A DNA stretch of 64,000 nt from Candidatus Woesebacteria bacterium (GCA_963784785.1 CAWASW010000007.1:66394-130393), one strand, 5' to 3'. Numbered from the stretch's first letter, positions 3,810 to 57,534 are shown. Numbers and translations: made by a program. The notes: a model not told the origin generated them from the sequence alone.

Positions 3810-5270
3810 TTATACTTCCACAATTCGGTCCAGAAGTTCATCATCCCAGTAGAGCATTTTTTGCTCTGGGAAGAGGTAAGCTTTAGTAGGCTTTAGTTCT
3901 TTCATAAATTCAGGTGCATGGGAAACTATTATCATAGTTCCCTTGTATTCCTTAAGAGCTTCTAAAATAATTCTTTGAGACATAACGTCAAGATAGGTTG
4001 TTGGTTCATCAAGAATCAGTAAGTTATTATCTTTTCCTGTAAGACAAGCAATTGAAAGCCTTGTTTTTTCTCCACCCGATAAACTCCCCACTCTTTGAAG
4101 TTGTTTATCTCCAGCAAACATGAATTTCCCCAAAAAACTTCTTGCCATTCCCTCATTCATTTTTGTTGCTTCACAAAAAGTATCCATGACTGATTTATTA
4201 AAATCAAAAGTTTCAAATTCTTGTGAATAATAACCAACTGATAGTTCATCATTTCTGTACACCTCACCACTATCTGGTTCTAACATCTTCATCAAAATTT
4301 TAATAAACGTAGATTTACCTGCTCCGTTTGATCCGATTAAGGCAATCCTCTCCCCTCTTAAAATAGTAAAGTTCACGTCTCTTAAAACTTCCAAAGATCC
4401 GTAACTTTTTTTAAGGTCTACAGTTTTTATTGGAACTTCTCCAATTCTTTTAGGTTCTGGTAGACGAATTGAAATTTTCTTTAATTCCTGTGGAACTTCT
4501 GGAAGATCTTCCCTTTCTCTTTCTACTTTACGTCTTAAAATTGATTTTGTAGCTACAGCTCTTGAATTATTATATCTTTCCTCAGTTCTCTTTAGATGTC
4601 TTGATTTAATTTCTAATTCTTTTCTTAAGTTTTCTTCTTTGTCTTTTTTAAGCCTTTCATAATCAGAGTAAGTTCCTTTATATTCTTCAATTTTTCCATT
4701 GTATGGAGTAACCGCCAAAATCTTATCAAGTGACTGATCCATCAATTCCAAATCATGGGAGATAACTATTACTGCCCCATGATAATTGGCCAAAAATCTC
4801 ATAACCCATGCTTTACCAGAGATATCCATAAAGTTGGTTGGCTCATCAAGCATCAAAATATCTGGATTTTCAAAAAGAGCACGAGCCAATGCTAACTTAG
4901 TTTTTTGTCCACCGGATAATGTTTTGGGATTTTGCTCTAGAGCCACATTTAATTCAAGACCTTTAAACATTTTGTGAATTTCAAAATCAGCAAATTGAGT
5001 TTCTGAATCAACATATTGTCTGACGGTTGACGCTTTTTCCATTTTGGCATCGTGTTTTATTTCTTGAGGAACTAAACTAATTGTTCCTTCTAGTTTTACT
5101 TTTCCAGTGTATCCATGCTCTTCGCCTCTAATGATTGAAAGTATTGTTGATTTTCCAGATCCATTTGGACCCACAAGACCTACTTTTTGACCTTTTGAGA
5201 TACGAAAATTAACCCCTGAATAAAGAGGCTTTTCTCCAAACCCAAATGTGAGATCAGTTACTTGAAGCAC
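3810..5270 (-). CDS. ABC-F family ATPase (two tandem ABC domains, no TMD)
   Basis: Two Walker A sites (GLVGPNGSGKST, ALIGSNGAGKST), two LSGG signatures (LSGGQKTK, LSGGEKTR) and a charged inter-domain linker. Confidence 0.85.
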   Translation of the reverse strand: MLQVTDLTFGFGEKPLYSGVNFRISKGQKVGLVGPNGSGKSTILSIIRGEEHGYTGKVKLEGTISLVPQEIKHDAKMEKASTVRQYVDSETQFADFEIHKMFKGLELNVALEQNPKTLSGGQKTKLALARALFENPDILMLDEPTNFMDISGKAWVMRFLANYHGAVIVISHDLELMDQSLDKILAVTPYNGKIEEYKGTYSDYERLKKDKEENLRKELEIKSRHLKRTEERYNNSRAVATKSILRRKVEREREDLPEVPQELKKISIRLPEPKRIGEVPIKTVDLKKSYGSLEVLRDVNFTILRGERIALIGSNGAGKSTFIKILMKMLEPDSGEVYRNDELSVGYYSQEFETFDFNKSVMDTFCEATKMNEGMARSFLGKFMFAGDKQLQRVGSLSGGEKTRLSIACLTGKDNNLLILDEPTTYLDVMSQRIILEALKEYKGTMIIVSHAPEFMKELKPTKAYLFPEQKMLYWDDELLDRIVEV

Positions 5271-5299: not shown

Positions 5300-5758
5300 T
5301 TAAGCTGTGGCGAAGTTTTGGTATTTATCCAACCTGTCCACTCTTTTTACTAAATTATTAAAATCCTCCCCAGTTGGAGCATCCTCGTCAAGCGCATTAA
5401 GCTGTTTGCCTATCAAATCAGCCCTATCATTAATATCTTTGAATCCCTGCTTAGTTTCTTTTCTTAAATCACTTAAATTCAAGTTTGTATCATCAATTTT
5501 AGCACTCAGCTTTGCCTCAAATTGGTTTATTCTTGTTCCAAGTTTAGTTTCTACTTGGTTTATTCTTGTTCCAAGTTTAGTTTCTACTTGGTTTATTCTT
5601 GTTCCAAGTTTAGTTTCAACCTCACTTATTTTCCTTCCGAGTTTAGTTTCTACTTGGTTTATTCTTGTTCCAAGTTTAGTTTCAACTTGACCAATTTTCA
5701 CAACAAGATCTTTTTTCAAATCCTCAATCGCTTGAATTACCAATTTCGAATCATTCAT
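5300..5758 (-). CDS. Coiled-coil protein with 11-aa tandem repeats (TKLGTRINQVE x5)
   Basis: Translation shows five near-identical 11-residue repeats encoded by a 33-bp DNA tandem repeat. Confidence 0.6.
   Translation of the reverse strand: MNDSKLVIQAIEDLKKDLVVKIGQVETKLGTRINQVETKLGRKISEVETKLGTRINQVETKLGTRINQVETKLGTRINQFEAKLSAKIDDTNLNLSDLRKETKQGFKDINDRADLIGKQLNALDEDAPTGEDFNNLVKRVDRLDKYQNFATA
5514..5690. repeat. 33-bp near-perfect tandem repeat x5, in-frame inside the CDS
   Basis: ttggtttattcttgttccaagtttagtttctac repeated head-to-tail with 1-2 variant copies. Confidence 0.85.
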
Positions 5759-26963: not shown

Positions 26964-27024
26964 TGTTTATATAATATATGTCATCGCGAACGAATGCAAT
27001 GAGTGAGGCGATCTAACATCAAAC

Positions 27025-27061
27025 AGATTGCTTCTCCGCCCAAGGCGAATCGCAATGACAC
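27025..27061. repeat. 37-bp GC-richer intergenic repeat AGATTGCTTCTCCGCCCAAGGCGAATCGCAATGACAC (copy 1, tsf-frr spacer)
   Basis: Near-identical copy at 54783-54819; partial copies ttcgcaatgacact at 54834-54847 and 59101-59114; related atgagtgaggc-agattgct module at 26312-26330. Confidence 0.55.
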
Positions 27062-32068: not shown

Positions 32069-32147
32069 GGCTTAATAGCATAGTGTGTTGATATAACAGA
32101 AAGATATAGTTGATAATACGCCTCATTTTGAGTTTGAATAGTATTCA

Positions 32148-32726
32148 ATGGGTCAAAGAACACTTTTGTGCATATCCTGTAATAGTAAAATGTTTCTGTG
32201 GGGAAAGACTGGAACTGGAAAGAAAAGATGGTTTTGTAAAGTTTGTAAAACTTCAAGAATTTACCACAATAAAAAGAAAGATTTTAAAGTAGTTGATCTT
32301 TTCAGACAGTATATTTTGTGGGGTTTGACATATGAAATGCTGTCTTCTGTCTCAGGTTTGTCTGTAAGATATTTGGAGGGTGAATTTCATAAGTTATTGC
32401 TTCTTGATCCTCCAAAACTTCCTAGATTTGATCAAACTTTGTCTGGAAGAATTGATACTGCATATCTTTTGATTGATGGGCTTTGGTTTGGAAGATGGTT
32501 TGTCTTGATGCTGTATAGACAAAGTGGAACTTTGTACCTTTTGCATGTATCTATTGCTGGTAGAGAGGCTTCAACAAAAATAGTTAAGGATTTGAGGTTC
32601 ATAAAGGAGGAATTAAAATACACATTTTCAGGCTCTGTAACAGATGGAGGAACTGCCATTTGTTCTGCGGTTGATGAAGTGTATCCCCCACTCTCCACAT
32701 CAGATATGTCTTGCTCATATGCATAG
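32148..32726 (+). CDS. Transposase, N-terminal part (C2C2 zinc-finger region)
   Basis: CISCNS...CKVCK zinc-ribbon; continues into the overlapping ORF in another frame. Confidence 0.55.
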   Translation: MGQRTLLCISCNSKMFLWGKTGTGKKRWFCKVCKTSRIYHNKKKDFKVVDLFRQYILWGLTYEMLSSVSGLSVRYLEGEFHKLLLLDPPKLPRFDQTLSGRIDTAYLLIDGLWFGRWFVLMLYRQSGTLYLLHVSIAGREASTKIVKDLRFIKEELKYTFSGSVTDGGTAICSAVDEVYPPLSTSDMSCSYA

Positions 32727-33171
32727 AGATATTGTAAATGCACTTGGTAGACACTCAAAAGATAGAAGAATTGAAGAATTAATAAAAATTGCAAACCACA
32801 TTTGGTTCATAGAAAGTCATGAAGCTTTGAAATACTGGGAAACAATCTTAAAAGATTGGGTTAAGGCTAATTTCTTCTTTCTGAAAGAGATGAGGACAGA
32901 TGATTCTGGCCACAGTTGGTATATTCATAAAGGTGTGAGAAAAGCTGTCAGGATCCTAATTAAACTTCCAAAAACCTCATTCAAGTTTTTAGACCACCCA
33001 ACTATGCCAAAAACAACAAATGAAATTGAAGCTACATTTGGGCATATAGGACAAAGATGGTTAAGACATAAAGGCCTTAAAAAGACTCGTTGGGAAAGTT
33101 ACCTTAAATGGTTTGTATATTATTACAACTTTGAAAAAATGAAGGCCGATAATAAAACAAAACAGGATTAG
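32644..33171 (+). CDS. Transposase, C-terminal part (frame +1 relative to 32148-32726)
   Basis: Overlaps the previous ORF by 83 nt; TTNEIEATFGHIGQRW resembles the T-N-x-x-E motif near the C-terminus of several DDE transposase families. Confidence 0.55.
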   Translation: MEELPFVLRLMKCIPHSPHQICLAHMHRDIVNALGRHSKDRRIEELIKIANHIWFIESHEALKYWETILKDWVKANFFFLKEMRTDDSGHSWYIHKGVRKAVRILIKLPKTSFKFLDHPTMPKTTNEIEATFGHIGQRWLRHKGLKKTRWESYLKWFVYYYNFEKMKADNKTKQD

Positions 33172-33198
33172 AAAAACAACACATTAGTTCCATTAAGC

Positions 33199-33420
33199 CA
33201 AAACATTTCTTATTTGTTCTCCAATTGAAGTTCCACCGGGCTCACGAGTTGGAAAAACAGTAAAACCTTGTTCTCGTAGAAATTGAATAAGACGCGGCAT
33301 CTGTGATGTTTTTCCACAGCCCTCCTCCCCTTCCAGATTTATTAAAAATCCACCATTTATTTTTCGCATCTTGAGGCAAAGATATCTCAGAGCTATCAAA
33401 ACTTCAATGAGGAAAAACAA
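33199..33420 (-). pseudogene. tmk: Thymidylate kinase, N-terminal portion (P-loop)
   Basis: FLINLEGEEGCGKTSQ P-loop and TREPGGTSIGEQIRNVL; read-through into the IS ends at a TAA 3 nt past the TSD. Confidence 0.75.
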
Positions 33421-47694: not shown

Positions 47695-47953
47695 TCCCGA
47701 TTGTATCGGGATTGATTCATCTGATACAATGTATATGGTCCTGTTTGATTAGTGTTTTAGTCAGATTTTCCTGACTAAATCTATGAATTGGGAGGATGCG
47801 TTTGATAATCGTTCGCGATTATTGACAGTCCACCCACCTGAAGCAATTCAGGAAATTCACTGAGGCACTTTTCAGATGGGACCATTTTTGTATTAAAAAC
47901 GTATTATATTTGATATGAGATTCAACATTAAAAATGTTATAATTCCATTGTTC

Positions 47954-48025
47954 GCCGGCGTAGCTCAGTGGTAGAGCAGAACTTTTGTAAAGTTAAGGTC
48001 GGGGGTCCAAATCCTCCCGTCGGCT
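47954..48025 (+). tRNA. tRNA-Thr (anticodon UGU)
   Basis: Manual cloverleaf: 7-bp acceptor gccggcg/cgtcggc, D-arm tagctcagtggtagagca, anticodon loop ttTGTaa, T-arm ggggg-tccaaat-cctcc; preceded by an extended -10 tgttataat. Confidence 0.85.
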
Positions 48026-48037
48026 CAGATACGATAC

Positions 48038-48233
48038 GATACCGTTGCATAAACGGTCACTTGTTTAGCCTTAAATGATTTGTTGTTTTTCGTTAAAATA
48101 ATAACACTTTCGTCCGATTACTCGGACAATGCTGAAATTGGTTGTAGAAGCGTTTACTTAGTGAAACTACCTTTTTAGGCCGAAAGTATAGTAAAATCAG
48201 TGTATTTTAGAAGACCGAAATGTAACGGTCTCG
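48038..48233 (+). repeat. 196-bp structured repeat, copy 1, immediately 3' of tRNA-Thr(UGU)
   Basis: Near-identical to 52319-52514 (2-3 mismatches); begins with hairpin accgttGCATAAaacggt and ends with hairpin gaccgAAATGTAAcggtc; contains a further hairpin gtccgaTTACtcggac. Confidence 0.8.
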
Positions 48234-48293
48234 CTCAAGAATACGGGATAATTTTATATTGACTTCGGTTATACTTCGTACTATATTTTATAT

Positions 48294-49085
48294 ATGCCCG
48301 CTCGATGGTCCAAAGAAGTTGAGCTTATTAAATTTAGAGAGTTATATGATTTATATGTAGTTCAAAACAAAACAATCGGTGAAATTGGTAAGATCTTGCA
48401 TTTGGCTGAGGCAACTGTTTACGATCGACTACTGAGACTTAACATAAAACCAAATCGTTCAGTTAAGAAAAATTACAATAATCAAAGAAGCGATATAACA
48501 ATTCCACACATTCATACAAGTGAACTCGCTGAATTTTTTGGCATTATGTTGGGTGATGGATGTATATCTCCTACTCAGGTTATGGTCACTTTGGGTAATA
48601 AAGAATTAGACTATGTAAAATACGTTTCCAAACTGATTACTAAGATTTTTAAAATAACACCTAGAATTTACATACGTAAACGTGGATATTATGTTGTATC
48701 TTTTGGATCTACAAAGGCTGTTATATGGCTTATAAATAACAATTTGGTTATGAATAAAGTTAAAAAACAAGTCAAGGCACCTGAGTGGGTTTTAGAAAAG
48801 AAAGTATTTGAACAAAACTTATTAAAAGGATTGTTTGATACTGATGGTTCTGTATATCGGGTACGTTTTGGTGTACAATTATCATTCTCGAACAGATCAT
48901 TGCCTTTATTAAAAGATGTTTTTAATAGTTTAACATTATTAAATTATCATCCATCTAAAATTAGCAGATCTCAAGTTTATTTAACGAGAAAGAAACAGGT
49001 TTTACGATTTTTTAAAGATATAAACCCTGCTAATATAAAACATAGACAAAGATTTGAAGAGTTTGTAAAATATTACGATAAATAG
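48294..49085 (+). CDS. Double-motif LAGLIDADG homing endonuclease
   Basis: Motif 1 FFGIMLGDGCIS and motif 2 LKGLFDTDGSVY ~100 aa apart; sits between two tRNA genes. Confidence 0.8.
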   Translation: MPARWSKEVELIKFRELYDLYVVQNKTIGEIGKILHLAEATVYDRLLRLNIKPNRSVKKNYNNQRSDITIPHIHTSELAEFFGIMLGDGCISPTQVMVTLGNKELDYVKYVSKLITKIFKITPRIYIRKRGYYVVSFGSTKAVIWLINNNLVMNKVKKQVKAPEWVLEKKVFEQNLLKGLFDTDGSVYRVRFGVQLSFSNRSLPLLKDVFNSLTLLNYHPSKISRSQVYLTRKKQVLRFFKDINPANIKHRQRFEEFVKYYDK

Positions 49086-49090
49086 TAAAA

Positions 49091-49173
49091 GCCAAGGTGG
49101 CTGAGTGGTCAAAAGCACGAGTCTGTAGAACTCGCTCCGCAAGGATACCTAGGTCCGAATCCTAGCCTTGGCA
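49091..49173 (+). tRNA. tRNA-Tyr (anticodon GUA) with a long variable arm
   Basis: Acceptor gccaagg/ccttggc, anticodon stem-loop cgagt-ctGTAga-actcg, T-arm ctagg-tccgaat-cctag. Confidence 0.8.
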
Positions 49174-49206
49174 CACTGTTTTAGAGTAATAAATTTGTTC
49201 TAATAA

Positions 49207-49811
49207 TCAGAACTCCACAGATTCAACAAACTCAAGAAGTTTTTCACCTATAGCTTGTTGCCAAAACATGTCTTGTTCTTCTTGTGTCATGTCTGCAATA
49301 TATTTGTTTGTAGCAAGGTCAATCTGGATACTTTCTAACGAGTATCCTGCTTGTTTGTTTGTAGTTGGAGTTGATACAAAAGTTCTTGGTGATTTTATGA
49401 TAGTTTCTTTATAATTACCTTCTGGAGTTGCAATACAAATTCCAAATTCCCGATATCCTTCTGCTTTACCTCCTAGATTATCAATTAATTTAGAGTAATA
49501 CTCAATCATTTCTTCATCTGTAGTTACTGTGTGCCCATCAATCCTTCTAACATTTAAGGCTGGTTGTTTATCATCAGTAACCCATTAATGTAGAGTGTAT
49601 TATCCATTGAAAAAACTGTCTTACCTAATGCTTTTGCATATATTAGTGCCTTCTTCCTTACATTTTCATTTGCGTTTTTTCCATCTTCAATAACTTCAGG
49701 AAGTAGTGATTTATCAGCAACGCCATTCACTTCAATACCACTAGGCGCCAAAGCTCCCCTAATTTGTTTTATCTTTGCTTCATTTGTAGTTCCAAAAATT
49801 AATTCTTTCAT
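49207..49811 (-). pseudogene. rdgB: Non-canonical purine NTP pyrophosphatase (RdgB/Ham1 family) with a frameshift near 49520-49555
   Basis: N-terminal piece LIFGTTNEAKIKQIRGAL (Ham1 start) and C-terminal piece in another frame; the junction reads ...YINGLL / TDDKQPALNVRRIDGHTVTTDEEMIEYYSKL across frames. Confidence 0.55.
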
Positions 49812-49830
49812 CCTCCAATTATTCCTATAT

Positions 49831-50331
49831 TTATTTTTTATTTTTTTCTACAAACTTTTCTACCCATGATGGCAAGTAACCTTTGTGCATATTATATATT
49901 TCAGGTTTGGAAATATCATTCCAATGAAGTACTTTTCTACAATTATCTGCTCCACATCTACATTCCCAATCATAGGCAATATCAGTTCCTTTTGCTTCAT
50001 CAATATCCGTAGTTGCATAGTCATATGTTAGTTCTTCACCTTTTTGCATATCTCTTTTGGCTGAAAGTTCGTTATCTGAAGTCCACCAAGTGTTAGCGTC
50101 ACAGCTGTGGTTCCATGATTCTCCCTTTCCCGTAGCTACAACAAAATTTCCATCACTATCTGGATATGCATCTTTTTTAGTTTCTTCTGGAAGTTCTTCC
50201 CATTCCTCTTTTGTATATTTTTCAGTTTTTGTTAACTTCCAAATTAAAGTATCTTTTGGAATAAACTCTGAAGCAAATACACCATTTCCTTTGTTTGAAA
50301 TTTCTTTTTCATAAACAGAAACATACATCAT
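49831..50331 (-). CDS. SET-domain protein (putative lysine methyltransferase)
   Basis: NHSCDANT (NHSCxPN), ELTYDY, and post-SET Cys cluster CRCGADNCRK. Confidence 0.8.
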   Translation of the reverse strand: MMYVSVYEKEISNKGNGVFASEFIPKDTLIWKLTKTEKYTKEEWEELPEETKKDAYPDSDGNFVVATGKGESWNHSCDANTWWTSDNELSAKRDMQKGEELTYDYATTDIDEAKGTDIAYDWECRCGADNCRKVLHWNDISKPEIYNMHKGYLPSWVEKFVEKNKK

Positions 50332-50347
50332 ATTCAGTGAGTTTATA

Positions 50348-50739
50348 TTAAAAAGATTCTCTTATAACTTCAAACATTTTTCTATGCCCATTATCATTTG
50401 GGTGAAGACCATCCGCAAAATCTTTCTGCTCAAGACAGCCAACAAGAGATACAAATCTGCAATTATTTTTATCGGCAATTACATTTAATATCTTGTCATA
50501 ATTTTTAACCCTATTTAAATCATATGATTTGCCTTTTGAACTTTCTGGAAATGGTTTCAAGAGTGAATCGTCCCCTAGTGTTAATCCAATAAATGTAATA
50601 TTTTTACTAAAACTTTTAGCATCCCTAATTAAACTTTCAACATTCTTTATAAATATTTCCTGATTAAATCTACCCAGCTATTTTTAATATAAGCTGCTTG
50701 GGTGACGCTATCTCCAAATACGCGATAAGTTTTGTCCAT
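50348..50739 (-). pseudogene. SGNH/GDSL-family hydrolase with a frameshift near 50640-50660
   Basis: Block I FGDSVTQ in the N-terminal frame (MDKTYRVFGDSVTQ...RKYL*) and block V DGLHPNDNGH in the C-terminal ORF (50348-50560) in a different frame. Confidence 0.5.
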
Positions 50740-50789
50740 GATGCTTTTCAGATTATATTACTAGAGGATTTACAAAACCACCACTTTTT

Positions 50790-51245
50790 CTATCTCTCGA
50801 GGTTGGTCTTTTTTACCAATTTAGCAACATAGACGATCTTTCTAAGTTCTCCATCTTCACCTTCAATCTCACTAGACCCTGTAAGTCTCTGATATTCTGA
50901 CAAATAAGTGGATAGGGCTTCCTGTGCTTCTTTTAATTCGTTCTTCATCTCAGTCACTTTGTCATTTGCCATCTTGCCCTCGGGAGTTGAAAGAATCTTC
51001 GCTTTTACATCTGATTTTTTCTTACTTGCCTCTTTAGCTTCTTTGTCTGCAATTTGATATTCCTCGTTATTACTAAAAAGATCATTAAGCATTTCCTTCA
51101 CAGGTTTTAAGTCTTCTTTGACTCGAGCTATACGGGATATTAGCGTTTTTATAAGTGACTCAACTGAAAGCTGAGTTTTAACGGTATCTGGAACGATATC
51201 TGTTACTTCTGGGTCCAATTCGTTTAACTGATTATTATCATCCAT
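50790..51245 (-). CDS. Hypothetical acidic coiled-coil protein
   Basis: ORF. Confidence 0.4.
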   Translation of the reverse strand: MDDNNQLNELDPEVTDIVPDTVKTQLSVESLIKTLISRIARVKEDLKPVKEMLNDLFSNNEEYQIADKEAKEASKKKSDVKAKILSTPEGKMANDKVTEMKNELKEAQEALSTYLSEYQRLTGSSEIEGEDGELRKIVYVAKLVKKTNLER

Positions 51246-51306
51246 GGCCTAATAAAGTTACACAAATCTGTTATAACAAGCAATAGGCTTTTTTAAAATT
51301 AGGTGA

Positions 51307-52296
51307 CTATTCAAAAACTGGTTGACCGATTTTTGGAATATAAGTTTTAAATTCCTCGCGCTTTACTAATTTTTTATCTTCAAATGTCATTTTAACCACT
51401 AATCCTTTTTTAGTTTCTTCACTCCACATTTGATCAAATATAAAGTTACCCAAAGAATAATACACAGGGGCATTCCCGATTATCTCAAAATTTTGCACCC
51501 AATGTGGATGATGGCCAATTATTATATCCGCCCCACTTTCAATCATTTGTTTTGCAACTATACGCTGTACGCTATTCGCCACTGCCTTGTATTCTTCCCC
51601 CCAATGTGGACTAGTAATAAGAACATCGACTAATTTATCACTACTAGCGATTAGATCTTGGTCACTTGTAGTAAATTTATTTGAGACTAAATCAAAACCT
51701 AAAAAACCAAACTTAACACCATTCTTTTCAATTATCTCCAAGTTCTCATAACCCACTGATTTAATTCCAATATTACTTAAGTTTTTCTTAGTCTCTTCAA
51801 AACCTTTGTTACCATAATTATTAGTGTGATTGTTTGCTAAGGTCACGATATCAATACCAGAATTAGTCAACCCCTGAGCGATCTCAGGACTGGTGCAAAA
51901 CGAGAAGCTTCCTTTATACTGCCTAGGACAGTCCTTAATAACTGCATTTTCAAGATTTCCAAAAGTAATGTCGGCATTTGACAAAAAGCCTTGGACATTT
52001 CTAAAAGGATATAAATAGTCATTTTTATCAATCGCCTCCCCCATTACAGAGCGGCCAAGCATGATATCACCAGTGAAAATAAGAGTTGCTTGGTCAGTTG
52101 GAGGATTAGTTAATTGGACAAACGAAACTGGCACAAGAGCGATCAAAAACGCAATTAGGGAAGAAATTAGATTATTAAGCATGATATAATCATACCACTC
52201 TAATCGCCTAGATAAGAAAATCTTGTCTATGTATATGATGCCTAGATAGCTCAGTGGTAGAGCACCAACTTGGTAAGTTGGGGGTCGTGAGTCCAA
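51307..52296 (-). CDS. CapA/PgsA-family metallophosphoesterase (poly-gamma-glutamate capsule-type)
   Basis: N-terminal TM, GDIMLGR, FGNLEN, GHHPHW motifs. Confidence 0.8.
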   Translation of the reverse strand: MDSRPPTYQVGALPLSYLGIIYIDKIFLSRRLEWYDYIMLNNLISSLIAFLIALVPVSFVQLTNPPTDQATLIFTGDIMLGRSVMGEAIDKNDYLYPFRNVQGFLSNADITFGNLENAVIKDCPRQYKGSFSFCTSPEIAQGLTNSGIDIVTLANNHTNNYGNKGFEETKKNLSNIGIKSVGYENLEIIEKNGVKFGFLGFDLVSNKFTTSDQDLIASSDKLVDVLITSPHWGEEYKAVANSVQRIVAKQMIESGADIIIGHHPHWVQNFEIIGNAPVYYSLGNFIFDQMWSEETKKGLVVKMTFEDKKLVKREEFKTYIPKIGQPVFE

Positions 52297-52311
52297 TCCT
52301 CACTCTAGGCT
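52240..52311 (+). tRNA. tRNA-Thr (anticodon GGU)
   Basis: Acceptor gcctaga/tctaggc perfect, anticodon stem-loop ccaac-ttGGTaa-gttgg, T-arm cgtgagtccaatcctcac. Confidence 0.85.
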
Positions 52312-52318
52312 CAACCGA

Positions 52319-52514
52319 GATACCGTTGCATAAACGGTCACTTGTTTAGCCTTAAATGATTTGTTGTTTTTCGTTAAAATAATAACACTTTCGTCCGATT
52401 ACTCGGACAATGCTGAAATTGGTTGTAGAAGCGTTTACTTAGTGAAACTACCTTTTTAGGCCGAAAGTATAGTAAAATCAGTGTGTTTTAGGAGACCGAA
52501 ATGTAACGGTCTCG
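52319..52514 (+). repeat. 196-bp structured repeat, copy 2, immediately 3' of tRNA-Thr(GGU)
   Basis: See copy 1; starts 7 nt after the tRNA 3' end. Confidence 0.8.
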
Positions 52515-52574
52515 ACTTTTTTAGGCTCAAAATTGAGGCTGGATTGAATTTTATTATGGTGTTAAAATAACTAT

Positions 52575-52760
52575 ATGGCAAAAAAGGGAGCAAGAGAAAT
52601 CGTAGCAATGATCTGTCCAACCTGTAAAGCACAAAACTATGTGACAGACAGGAATAAGGTTAATATGGATACAAAAGGTAAAGGGAAATTAGAACTTAAA
52701 AAATGGTGCCAAGTTTGTAAAAAACAAACACTTCATAAAGAATCCTCAAAACTTAAGTAA
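52575..52760 (+). CDS. rpmG: 50S ribosomal protein L33
   Basis: MAKKGAREIVAM.CPTCK..NY...KNK.N....LELKKWC..CKK.TLHKE is the L33 zinc-ribbon pattern. Confidence 0.85.
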   Translation: MAKKGAREIVAMICPTCKAQNYVTDRNKVNMDTKGKGKLELKKWCQVCKKQTLHKESSKLK

Positions 52761-52858
52761 GAATATCTTGCTTTTGCAAAGTAAGTATTTAGATATAACT
52801 AAGTTACTATTCAGATATACAATTAGGTATATTTTTTTATTTATTCAGGTCGGGGGGT

Positions 52859-52932
52859 GGCAAGGCTGGAGGGAATCGAACCCCCACTAAAAGATTTGGA
52901 GTCTTTTGGTCTACCATTAACCTACAGCCTTA
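52859..52932 (-). tRNA. tRNA-Trp (anticodon CCA), genomically encoded CCA end
   Basis: Revcomp gives acceptor aaggctg/cagcctt, anticodon stem-loop aaaga-ctCCAaa-tcttt, T-arm ggggg-ttcgatt-ccctc, then gCCA. Confidence 0.8.
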
Positions 52933-53575
52933 TACTATTGGCAAAGGTATTATATAGGGAAGCAAGTTCATGAGCAACTTTATAGTCATAATATGTAACA
53001 TGAAGACTTCCCATATAATTTTCTCTTTTTCGCTTTCCTGTATGAGGTTTTAAATAGCTTTTGTTAAATTTATTAAGTGGAATGTTAGTTACTCTTGACC
53101 AAAATTTGAGGATCTCCGTTTCATTATGATATTTGTGAATATGAACTATTGCCCTAAATTTTTCTTCATCTAACTTAAATGACTTTCTTAGAGCATACAT
53201 AAAAGTCGATATCATTTTTGGGTCTGAATTGGTAAAACCTAGTCTTGTAAATCCCCCTTTTTCACCCTCTGTCCAAATAAATATAGCTGCAATTAATTTA
53301 AGAAGCGATGTCGTCATTTTAATTTTCTTAAACGATGACATTGCTTTATTCGACACCTCGTTCAAAACAAGTTTCCTACGATTACTAATTGTTTTAAATG
53401 CTCTTTTTCTAGCTGTATCTTGCCTATCTCGAATGATCTTTTTACCTGACTCTGTGATCTTTTCCTTCGAAGTCCAGAGTGAAGCTGTGCTTTTAGCTAT
53501 TTTTAACTCGGAAGAAATTTGGCCTAATGAGTAACCAGATCGCCTTAATAGTTTAGCTTTTTTTAACTACATTGC
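52922..53575 (-). pseudogene. HTH-containing endonuclease-like gene remnant (no canonical start for the HTH portion)
   Basis: Open frame upstream of the 147-aa ORF encodes LKKAKLLRRSGYSLGQISSELKIAKSTASLW (HTH) but is preceded by ATG-TAG; the downstream part carries a degenerate GxxxGEKGG segment. Function uncertain. Confidence 0.3.
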
Positions 53576-53654
53576 TTTTATATACATAGGTTATGTAAAT
53601 TAACTATACTGTTCGTTTTAAGTAGTGTCGACACAAACGATAGAAGTGTAAAAT

Positions 53655-54083
53655 ATGATAATGAAAATAGTTCTTGTAGGTGGATGTTTTGATATTCTTC
53701 ACATAGGTCATGTAAAGTTTTTAAAAAAGGCCAAAAGTTTTGGTGATTATTTAATTGTTCTATTAGAATCTGATGTAAACATTAAAAAACTTAAAGGCCC
53801 CACTCGCCCAATTCAAAATGAATTACAAAGAAAAGAAATTCTTTCTAGTTTAAAGTATGTTGATAAAATAATTATGGTACCAAAAAATGCCACTCACGAA
53901 ACATATCACAAATTAATAAAAAAAATTAAACCAAACATAATGGCAATTACCCAAGGTGATCCAATTAAACATTTAAAACTCATGCAAGCCAAATCAGTCG
54001 GAGCTAAATTAAAAGTAATTAAAATGTTTGGAGATTTATCTACTACAAAAATTATTGAAGGACTTACGGAGAGCGGAGACTGA
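53655..54083 (+). CDS. Cytidylyltransferase-fold nucleotidyltransferase (TagD / RfaE-domain-II-like)
   Basis: GGCFDILHIGH (H-x-G-H) at the N-terminus; ~140 aa. Confidence 0.75.
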   Translation: MIMKIVLVGGCFDILHIGHVKFLKKAKSFGDYLIVLLESDVNIKKLKGPTRPIQNELQRKEILSSLKYVDKIIMVPKNATHETYHKLIKKIKPNIMAITQGDPIKHLKLMQAKSVGAKLKVIKMFGDLSTTKIIEGLTESGD

Positions 54084-54663: not shown

Positions 54664-54782
54664 ATTGATCGATTGGATTGAGAGAAGTGATTTAGGAATC
54701 GGAAAAATTGCAAAATTGCGCAAAAAATCCGAATCAATATCCTAAATATCAGCTCTCAATCCAAGTAAGTCCCCCACAAAAC

Positions 54783-54819
54783 AGATTGCTTCTCCACCCA
54801 AGGCGGATCGCAATGACAC
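54783..54819. repeat. 37-bp GC-richer intergenic repeat, copy 2 (upstream of gmd)
   Basis: AGATTGCTTCTCCACCCAAGGCGGATCGCAATGACAC; 2 mismatches to copy 1. Confidence 0.55.
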
Positions 54820-56929: not shown

Positions 56930-57355
56930 ATGGAAAACAATAAACTCGTTGTTAACCCTGCGCAAGAATATGTTAATAGTCTTTTTACTGAATCCTTGAT
57001 TGGGAACAATAATAAATTAGTTCTTGTAGATGGAAAATATAAAGATATAGAAATTAAACAACTGTGTCTTAAAAGTTCTGATGAAAAAATACATCCGGTA
57101 TCTATAGCTGAAAATTTAGTTTTGGTCGGTCTTGTAGATGAGCCTGTTGAGTTTTCTGATATTATTTGGAATAGTGAATCAGCAACACCAATTAAGCTAA
57201 AGGAGGCTGTCGAACAAGGTAGATTGCCAAAAGATTCGAAAAAAGGTGTCTTGGCAATAGTTGCCACAGCTGAGAGAATTAAAGGGACAAGTCAATTTGA
57301 CATAAATAATAAAGTGTTTGAGGAACAAAAAAAGATTGAGAAATTATTAAAATGA
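56930..57355 (+). CDS. Hypothetical protein
   Basis: ORF between rpsU and secE. Confidence 0.4.
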   Translation: MENNKLVVNPAQEYVNSLFTESLIGNNNKLVLVDGKYKDIEIKQLCLKSSDEKIHPVSIAENLVLVGLVDEPVEFSDIIWNSESATPIKLKEAVEQGRLPKDSKKGVLAIVATAERIKGTSQFDINNKVFEEQKKIEKLLK

Positions 57356-57534
57356 AGACAGCCGTCAATTTTCTCACTGAAGTCAAACCTGAGCTTGAAA
57401 AAGTCACTTGGCCAAAACGAAATGTCGTGATAAACTACCTAGGTCTAGTTATAACTATATCTGTAGTTGTAGCATTTTTTGTAGGAAGTGTAGATTACGG
57501 TCTTACCAAGGGTTTAGAATATTTTTTAAAATAA
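57352..57534 (+). CDS. secE: Preprotein translocase subunit SecE
   Basis: 60 aa, single C-terminal TM, KVTWPKR motif, immediately upstream of nusG. Confidence 0.8.
   Translation: MKTAVNFLTEVKPELEKVTWPKRNVVINYLGLVITISVVVAFFVGSVDYGLTKGLEYFLK

Follow-up and report, generated by a model that had tools for sequence, protein, structure and literature searches.

Within a 64,000-nt stretch of a Candidatus Woesebacteria genome (GCA_963784785.1 CAWASW010000007.1:66394-130393; hereafter the window), both tRNA-Thr genes are followed by the same 195-bp repeat, which we interpret, with a probability of roughly 0.85, as a miniature inverted-repeat transposable element (MITE). Sequence comparison indicates a non-autonomous derivative, formed by internal deletion, of an insertion sequence (IS) of Mutator/IS256 type that is ~1.17-1.19 kb in length. 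The kind of element is ordinary, and it is the placement of its copies just after tRNA genes that forms the unusual and perhaps surprising aspect of the locus.

Copy 1 of the MITE (48038..48232, plus strand) starts 11 nt after tRNA-Thr(UGU) (47954..48026, plus strand), and copy 2 (52319..52513, plus strand) starts 6 nt after tRNA-Thr(GGU) (52240..52312, plus strand), both tRNA genes being called by ARAGORN and Rfam. An earlier note on this DNA had described a 196-bp element behind both genes, and the shared repeat was confirmed by repeat search and alignment as a direct repeat of 196 nt (48038-48233 versus 52319-52514) with 99% identity and two mismatches. The shared base 196, however, belongs to the flank, leaving a mobile unit of 195 bp (GATACC...GGTCTC). 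The 18- and 20-nt ends of this unit were found at only these two places in the window, against ~0.01 occurrences expected by chance.

Comparison of the 5' end of the MITE (GATACCGTTGCATAAACGGTC) with the reverse complement of its 3' end (GAGACCGTTACATTTCGGTC) identified the two ends as imperfect terminal inverted repeats (TIRs). Along the tRNA strand, copy 1 thus reads from an IRR-type end (GATACCGTTGCATAAACGGTC) through an internal hairpin (48110-48129) to an IRL-type end (GACCGAAATGTAACGGTCTC). Each TIR holds a short palindrome, ACCGTT/AACGGT on one side and GACCG/CGGTC on the other, and the two terminal hairpins and the internal hairpin that had been read from the sequence beforehand are all present.

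Putative parent insertion sequence

An exact-pattern scan for the unit 5' end, covering one genome per species plus metagenomes, recovered two contigs of Ca. Woesebacteria GW2011_GWB1_33_38 (L012 and L013), one other metagenome-assembled genome (MAG) contig and, from the metagenomes, 16 more stretches; the insertion sequences are known from groundwater metagenomes too. A scan of viral contigs for the unit end sequence gave no match. In the Woesebacteria contig and in most of the sufficiently long metagenome stretches, the matching sequence was one end of an element of 1169-1182 bp. Full-length elements run from GATACCGTTACATAAACGGTC to TGTAACGGTCTC, carry imperfect inverted repeats of ~20-30 bp and each contain a single open reading frame (ORF) of 298-301 aa. 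The L012 transposase scored 46.2 bits with Pfam Transposase_mut (PF00872; cutoff 21), and the top NCBIfam match of the IS transposase was IS256 (NF033543; E 6.6e-20, 71.4 bits). Perfect 9-bp target duplications (CATCGATTG, AATCTATAC and CCCAATTGC) flanked three IS copies, whilst at two further IS loci the flanks were exchanged, a pattern that recombination between copies, or their chimeric assembly, would produce. The transposase family comprised 827 clusters at E up to 1e-30, mostly on contigs of ~1.1-1.3 kb, and most of the listed homologues carried a precomputed PF00872 assignment. Where a TnpA or TnpB gene with matching end hairpins had been envisaged, the full-length elements recovered with these ends all proved to encode a PF00872 transposase.

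The MITE aligned to the first 52-58 nt of these elements at 81-87% identity and to their last 81-85 nt at 63-70% identity, in the same order, with ~65 nt retained from the transposase-distal IS end and ~100 nt from the transposase-proximal end. Because the unit is collinear with both IS ends, we classify it as a MITE. No transposase of the parent-IS type was detected in the window by tblastn. The best candidate for an autonomous partner, by sequence, is L041, a 1188-nt contig whose whole length is one complete IS. Its agreement with the MITE is 27 of 29 nt at one end and 61 of 81 nt at the other, the latter including a 17-nt identical block, with the terminal inverted repeats themselves agreeing at 27/29 and 18/20 nt. 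L041 derives from sequencing run ERR12037365, which also yielded three contigs (L002, L030 and L031) with 100% identity to the window, breaking off within the unit, a pattern that we ascribe to the unit being a repeat.

The parent IS has a coding layout of its own. In L041 (109-270) and in L012 (~5030-5180, plus strand), which are diverged and come from separate datasets, the ATG is followed directly by A AAA AAG, and a zinc-ribbon segment (CPKC...CKxC) lies in the -1 frame, continuous with the transposase. Conservation of this A AAA AAG layout suggests programmed -1 frameshifting or transcriptional slippage, as far as can be read from the sequences, and some transposase homologues of 320-420 aa may be fusions of the zinc-ribbon and transposase parts.

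A second IS in the window (32069-33201, 1133 bp) is of an IS1249/IS256-Zn-like type, with the transposase divided between two overlapping ORFs (192 and 175 aa). This element was considered as a partner of the MITE and rejected, its inverted repeats (GGCTTAAT...) being unrelated to the MITE ends.

Insertion sites and possible target preference

Loci from relatives were obtained via homologues of the neighbouring M50 peptidase and include counterparts of both window sites. At the first site, L032 and L039 carry the same or nearly the same tRNA-Thr(UGU), identical to that of the window in L032, with tRNA-Tyr following after 22-26 nt (26 nt in L032) and no MITE, and in L033 and L034 an endonuclease-like gene separates the two tRNAs, again with no MITE. 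At the second site, tRNA-Thr(GGU) is followed by rpmG, the gene for ribosomal protein L33, after 28-46 nt in L033 (46 nt), L036, L037 and L039, likewise without a MITE; in the window, rpmG (52575..52760, plus strand) was assigned by Pfam Ribosomal_L33. The native sequence resumes beyond each unit: window positions 48235-48299 align at 89% with L034 7887-7951, which lies directly 3' of the tRNA in L034, and the window from 52523 onward aligns with L033 from 9835 onward, comprising the tRNA 3' end and the native trailer. By these alignments, the unit is an insertion and not a native tRNA trailer.

The junctions of both window copies carry duplicated tRNA 3' ends, contrary to the absence of target duplication reported in the earlier note. 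At copy 1, GCTCA (48023-48027, the last 5 nt of tRNA-Thr(UGU)) recurs immediately right of the unit (48233..48237) in the manner of a target-site duplication, followed by the native trailer AGAATACGG. A filler of 10 nt (GATACGATAC, 48028..48037) lies between the end of tRNA-Thr(UGU) and copy 1; read directly from the sequence, it consists of two additional copies of the first 5 nt of the MITE, and it is absent from the empty sites in L032, L034 and L039. At copy 2, a 9-bp duplication (TAGGCTCAA) made up of the last 7 nt of tRNA-Thr(GGU) plus 2 nt occurs on both sides (left copy, 52306..52314; right copy, 52522-52530), set off from the inverted repeats by the 4-nt filler CCGA on the left (52315-52318) and the 8-nt filler GACTTTTT on the right (filler and right copy together, 52514..52530). 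The duplicated target takes in the final 5-7 nt of the tRNA and would thereby leave the tRNA gene whole.

Further copies were found on other contigs. L011, a 379-kb MAG contig, holds a third copy, 100% identical to copy 2, which starts 8 nt after tRNA-Met and is directly abutted on both sides by TAATTCG, a 7-bp repeat. L007, a relative with an identical L33 protein, holds a fourth copy that starts 10 nt after tRNA-Trp, and L009 provides the empty counterpart of this site, with the insertion point inside a hairpin. In L026, a solo 38-nt unit end starts 4 nt after a tRNA-like gene. Three of the copies are at least 99% identical to one another and lie behind three different tRNAs, pointing to recent spread. 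On L011 there is, in addition, a 1132-bp IS with 100% identity to window positions 32069-33200, by which we take L011 to come from the same organism as the window or a near-identical one.

Several observations accompany the L011 contig. It is deposited as CAVZPH010000003.1 under the label 'uncultured Actinomycetota bacterium', which looks wrong, and the top protein homologues of the window neighbours belong to Woesebacteria, Microgenomates and Patescibacteria. The second IS occupies L011 855-1986, 26 nt from the MITE copy, and its 7-bp duplications read AAACATT in the window and CGAAAAC in L011.

The number and context of these copies bear on whether a mobile element is needed at all. A segmental duplication or gene conversion between the two tRNA-Thr loci could have been seeded by the genes themselves, which are 70% identical and share an 18-nt identical block, and would agree with the lack of clean abutting duplications at the window copies. 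The identity ends exactly at the inverted repeats, however, the two units are separated from their tRNAs by different spacers, the target is duplicated individually at each window copy, and more copies lie after tRNA-Met and tRNA-Trp on other contigs, leaving this explanation with hardly any probability. The earlier note had allowed for a unit confined to two sites and aligning with ordinary tRNA-Thr trailers in relatives; what emerged was further copies and empty sites.

A structured RNA origin was weighed against the same data. Under this explanation, the unit would be a small RNA gene or a cis-acting RNA co-transcribed with the tRNA, such as a module for termination or processing, whose usefulness would account for its duplication. 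The unit on the tRNA strand does adopt a closed multi-branch fold (-54.2 kcal/mol, z = -2.8), all copies are oriented like the tRNA, and the 3' end hairpin and T-run of copy 2 scored as terminator-like in a terminator scan. Yet the closing stem of the fold is the inverted repeat pair, and follows from the two ends being inverted repeats of each other; both ends are common to transposase-bearing insertion sequences, and close relatives lack the unit at these sites. Folding of the opposite strand, too, is stronger than that of its shuffled versions (z = -1.95), and the complete copies, at 99-100% identity, permit no covariation test. Neither copy matched any Rfam 15 covariance model, whether across the whole window at the gathering score or within 47900-53700 at E up to 10. 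The small structured RNA suggested previously therefore gains no positive evidence, as the inverted ends explain the fold, and we regard it as quite improbable, although the MITE may secondarily be used as a terminator. Group I intron, ribozyme and retron-like ideas were also rejected, with no model match and no adjacent reverse transcriptase.

The interpretation favoured in the earlier note was a miniature element derived from the IS200/IS605 family, a palindrome-associated transposable element (PATE). Such an element would be moved as single-stranded DNA by a Y1 TnpA transposase that recognises hairpins near the ends, and would insert 3' of a particular short sequence. PATEs and the unit are indeed both short and structured, with hairpins near both ends, and all unit copies share one orientation relative to the tRNA. 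PATEs, however, have no inverted repeats, make no target duplication and lie 3' of a fixed tetra- or pentanucleotide, and each of these three features is contradicted in the unit. Its ends are inverted repeats of each other, and its full-length relatives carry a DDE transposase of Mutator/IS256 type, not TnpA/TnpB, together with 9-bp duplications. The bases 5' of the unit vary by site (...GATAC, ...CCGA, ...TTCG, ...ATTG and ...ATAC) without a common tetra- or pentanucleotide, and the insertion distance, previously thought fixed, spans 4-11 nt. A mobile element that is miniature, non-autonomous and sited beside tRNAs remains supported, whilst its assignment as a PATE is very improbable given the TIRs, the duplications and the PF00872 transposase.

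For the preferred MITE reading, the biology of the family suggests a mechanism. The transposase would be provided in trans by a full-length IS located elsewhere in the genome or in the community; the transposase would bind the MITE ends and copy the element out via a circular intermediate, and the circular MITE would then be pasted into a staggered cut. Circular intermediates are described for the Mutator superfamily, and their junction may carry a few flanking nucleotides (PMC3942029).

A number of points weigh against this reading. The IS transposase falls under the NCBIfam IS256 cutoff (71.4 versus 150 bits), for which reason we file the parent IS under the Mutator superfamily, nearest to IS256, and not as a proven IS256 member. 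L041 is tied to the window by a shared sequencing run, and may or may not lie in the same genome. The MITE interior (~48100-48150) has no detectable IS counterpart, and subterminal identity to the best partner is 75%, so that the MITE is not a recent deletion of any IS found here. Neither window copy has a clean abutting duplication, fillers of 10 nt (copy 1) and 4 + 8 nt (copy 2) intervening, and the duplication in L011 is 7 bp long, not 9. The proposed mechanism does not account for these fillers, nor for duplications that differ in length between MITE copies (5, 7 and 9 bp), and transposition, circle formation and transposase binding are attributed to the element by analogy with its family.

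In all five sites, the same unit end faces the tRNA and the unit starts 4-11 nt beyond it (11, 6, 8, 10 and 4 nt). Positions within ~12 nt of the four tRNA ends make up ~0.15% of the window, and both window copies lie inside them. The association with tRNA ends exceeds chance, which suggests either an oriented target preference or survival at harmless sites. The 45-nt left flanks of the insertion sites tended to be more structured than 3000 random 45-mers (median percentile ~0.13), a comparison confounded by composition and intergenic location, and the distance from the insertion to a promoter -35 box or promoter-like hexamers was not constant. It is possible, but on balance doubtful, that the IS256-like branch, or at least the MITE, has an oriented preference for the tRNA 3' boundary or the hairpin that follows it. 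The case for tRNA-end targeting comprises five sites, and the tRNA-like gene in L026 was called by ARAGORN only and not by Rfam at the gathering score. Nine of the ten distinct full-length or end-truncated IS sites with flanks were not tRNA-adjacent, the tenth (L014) lying ~92 nt downstream of tRNA-Ile, and IS256 insertions have been reported as apparently random (PMC3942029).

Endonuclease genes and neighbouring features

Between copy 1 and tRNA-Tyr(GUA) (49091..49174, plus strand; ARAGORN and Rfam) lies a gene (48294..49085, plus strand) for a free-standing LAGLIDADG homing endonuclease with an N-terminal helix-turn-helix (HTH). The double-motif gene named in the earlier note between tRNA-Thr and tRNA-Tyr was thereby corroborated: Pfam LAGLIDADG_3 matched in two stretches (48.6 bits against a cutoff of 22.5), and the motifs FFGIMLGDGC and LKGLFDTDGS are present in the translation. 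The gene stops 5 nt short of tRNA-Tyr. It is absent from L032 and L039 and replaced by another ORF in L033 and L034, and by this distribution it is an insertion independent of the MITE. A promoter-like TTGACT-17-TATATT (48259..48287, plus strand) precedes the LAGLIDADG gene and is kept in L033 and L034 before the different ORF; promoter and leader in these relatives (L033 7917-7957, L034 7887-7951) are 89-90% identical to window positions 48235-48299. The L033/L034 ORF encodes 257-259 aa with zinc ribbons and gave only weak matches, to DUF1064, endonuclease I and NUMOD3, with a PD-(D/E)XK-like character among them. From these alignments, the expression signal looks to have stayed in place while the endonuclease cassettes behind it were swapped. 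The otherwise unrelated ORFs of the window and L033/L034 also share their first two codons (Met-Pro).

A decayed gene adjoins tRNA-Trp(CCA) (52858..52931, minus strand; ARAGORN and Rfam), which, as previously described, is opposite in strand to rpmG and secE (57352-57534, plus strand). It is a pseudogene (52922..53566, minus strand) from a protein family with an HTH and a single LAGLIDADG fold, its 3' end overlapping tRNA-Trp. The sole upstream ATG is directly followed by an in-frame TAG, in agreement with the earlier description of a remnant lacking a usable start, and this HTH plus LAGLIDADG-fold family is uncharacterised. tRNA-Trp and its upstream ORF are inverted relative to L033, L036, L038 and L039. 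Elsewhere among the relatives, a GIY-YIG gene (L003) or a 23S-IVP gene (L001) lies upstream of rpmG, and L026 has an HNH-motif gene upstream of tRNA-Ser.

These genes raise a further explanation, namely a homing-endonuclease-associated cassette in which the unit travels with the hotspot endonucleases or is captured at the breaks they make, an origin that would explain the fillers and irregular duplications. Endonuclease-like genes of LAGLIDADG, HNH and GIY-YIG type, and one with a weak PD-(D/E)XK-like match, do adjoin tRNAs in the window and its relatives, and filler nucleotides at the window junctions are atypical of precise DDE transposition. However, no endonuclease gene is adjacent downstream of copy 2, the copy 1 site of L033 and L034 is occupied by an endonuclease-like gene but no MITE, and clean duplications accompany both the L011 copy (7 bp) and the full-length insertion sequences (9 bp). 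The MITE and the endonuclease genes occur independently, which makes the associated cassette raised in the earlier note improbable. The LAGLIDADG gene and the remaining endonuclease-like genes are selfish elements that entered this stable-RNA hotspot independently of the MITE.

U55 is near-universal in tRNA T-loops, whereas many tRNAs of this lineage read GUCCRA, with C at the U55 position (47954-48026, 49091-49174 and 52240-52312 in the window, and others in L007, L009, L032, L033 and L036); in close relatives, the orthologous tRNAs show the canonical GUUCRA. Between relatives, moreover, divergence of the two tRNA-Thr genes far exceeds that of the flanking protein genes.

A 6S RNA-like gene (47735-47886, plus strand) lies between the M50 peptidase gene and tRNA-Thr(UGU). 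Its score with Rfam RF00013 was 36.7 bits (E 3.4e-6, search of 281 nt), short of the 46.4-bit gathering threshold, and an extended -10-like TGATACAAT lies in front of it. The gene is strongly conserved in L032, L033, L034, L039 and L040, where seven base pairs are preserved by changes on both sides.

The block between tRNA-Tyr and tRNA-Thr(GGU) (49207-51245, minus strand) is variable between relatives and contains decayed genes. A Ham1 match (49554-49811) spans only profile positions 1-74 of 186 and is followed by a 100-aa ORF (49207-49509) with no Pfam match. An intact SET-domain gene (49831-50331), a C-terminal GDSL-lipase fragment (50348-50560) and a 151-aa ORF whose only match, to TerB_C, stayed under the threshold (24.9 bits; cutoff 26.3) are also found within the block. 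Elsewhere in the window, a 41-nt repeat (27021-27061 and 54779-54819, 95% identical) with the palindrome ATTGC...GCAAT around CGCC-CAAG-GCG may be another small repeated element, and six tandem copies with a 33-nt period (an 83-nt family in the repeat search) lie inside overlapping ORFs at 5475-5722.

Relation to known mobile elements and significance

The unit resembles the MITEs of IS256 and prokaryotic Mutator-like (p-MULT) elements in being small and non-coding, in having imperfect TIRs in common with a transposase-bearing IS, and in occurring as several near-identical copies with presence/absence polymorphism. IS256-type elements generate target duplications of 8-9 bp, according to the ISfinder family descriptions, and the parent IS is like the IS256 group in its single PF00872 transposase and 9-bp target duplications. 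Unlike that group, the parent IS is short (1169-1188 bp) and scores under the NF033543 cutoff, and unlike IS256/p-MULT MITEs, the window copies show filler nucleotides that separate their ends from the duplication. Every unit copy found lies 4-11 nt after a tRNA gene, whereas insertion of IS256 is reported as apparently random (PMC3942029).

Within the same superfamily, TnGBS, ISLre2 and ISKra4 insert in an oriented manner 15-17 bp upstream of sigma-A promoters (PMC3942029). They offer a precedent, although not evidence, for oriented insertion at a landmark without a sequence motif, and differ in that the landmark here would be a tRNA 3' end or hairpin and not a promoter. Their circular intermediates carry a few flanking nucleotides at the junction.

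T4-like phages have free-standing homing-endonuclease genes of the Seg type in their tRNA region. The LAGLIDADG gene and the HTH plus LAGLIDADG-fold family are like them in having their own promoter, in being wedged at tRNAs and in their presence or absence between relatives, and unlike them in residing on the bacterial chromosome of an organism of the candidate phyla radiation (CPR), the endonuclease being assigned from its sequence.

Identification of the repeat as a probable MITE with a parent IS type gives a concrete identity in place of a speculative PATE or new-RNA reading, and explains the breaks of short-read assemblies at this locus. It also indicates that CPR genomes of ~1 Mb, too, harbour recently active DDE transposons, and that stable-RNA genes here form a landing zone for a MITE, at least three endonuclease families and the HTH plus LAGLIDADG-fold family. 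The tRNA-end targeting of integrases and eukaryotic retroelements is known, and the recurrent position of the MITE after tRNA genes provides a testable hypothesis on the target choice of Mutator-type elements. If an oriented preference of this kind were real, the staggered cut would overlap the last bases of the tRNA and the duplication would restore an intact gene, a DDE-transposon counterpart to the targeting of tRNA ends by those other elements. It would then constitute a second landmark-directed mode within the Mutator superfamily, beside the promoter targeting of TnGBS/ISLre2.

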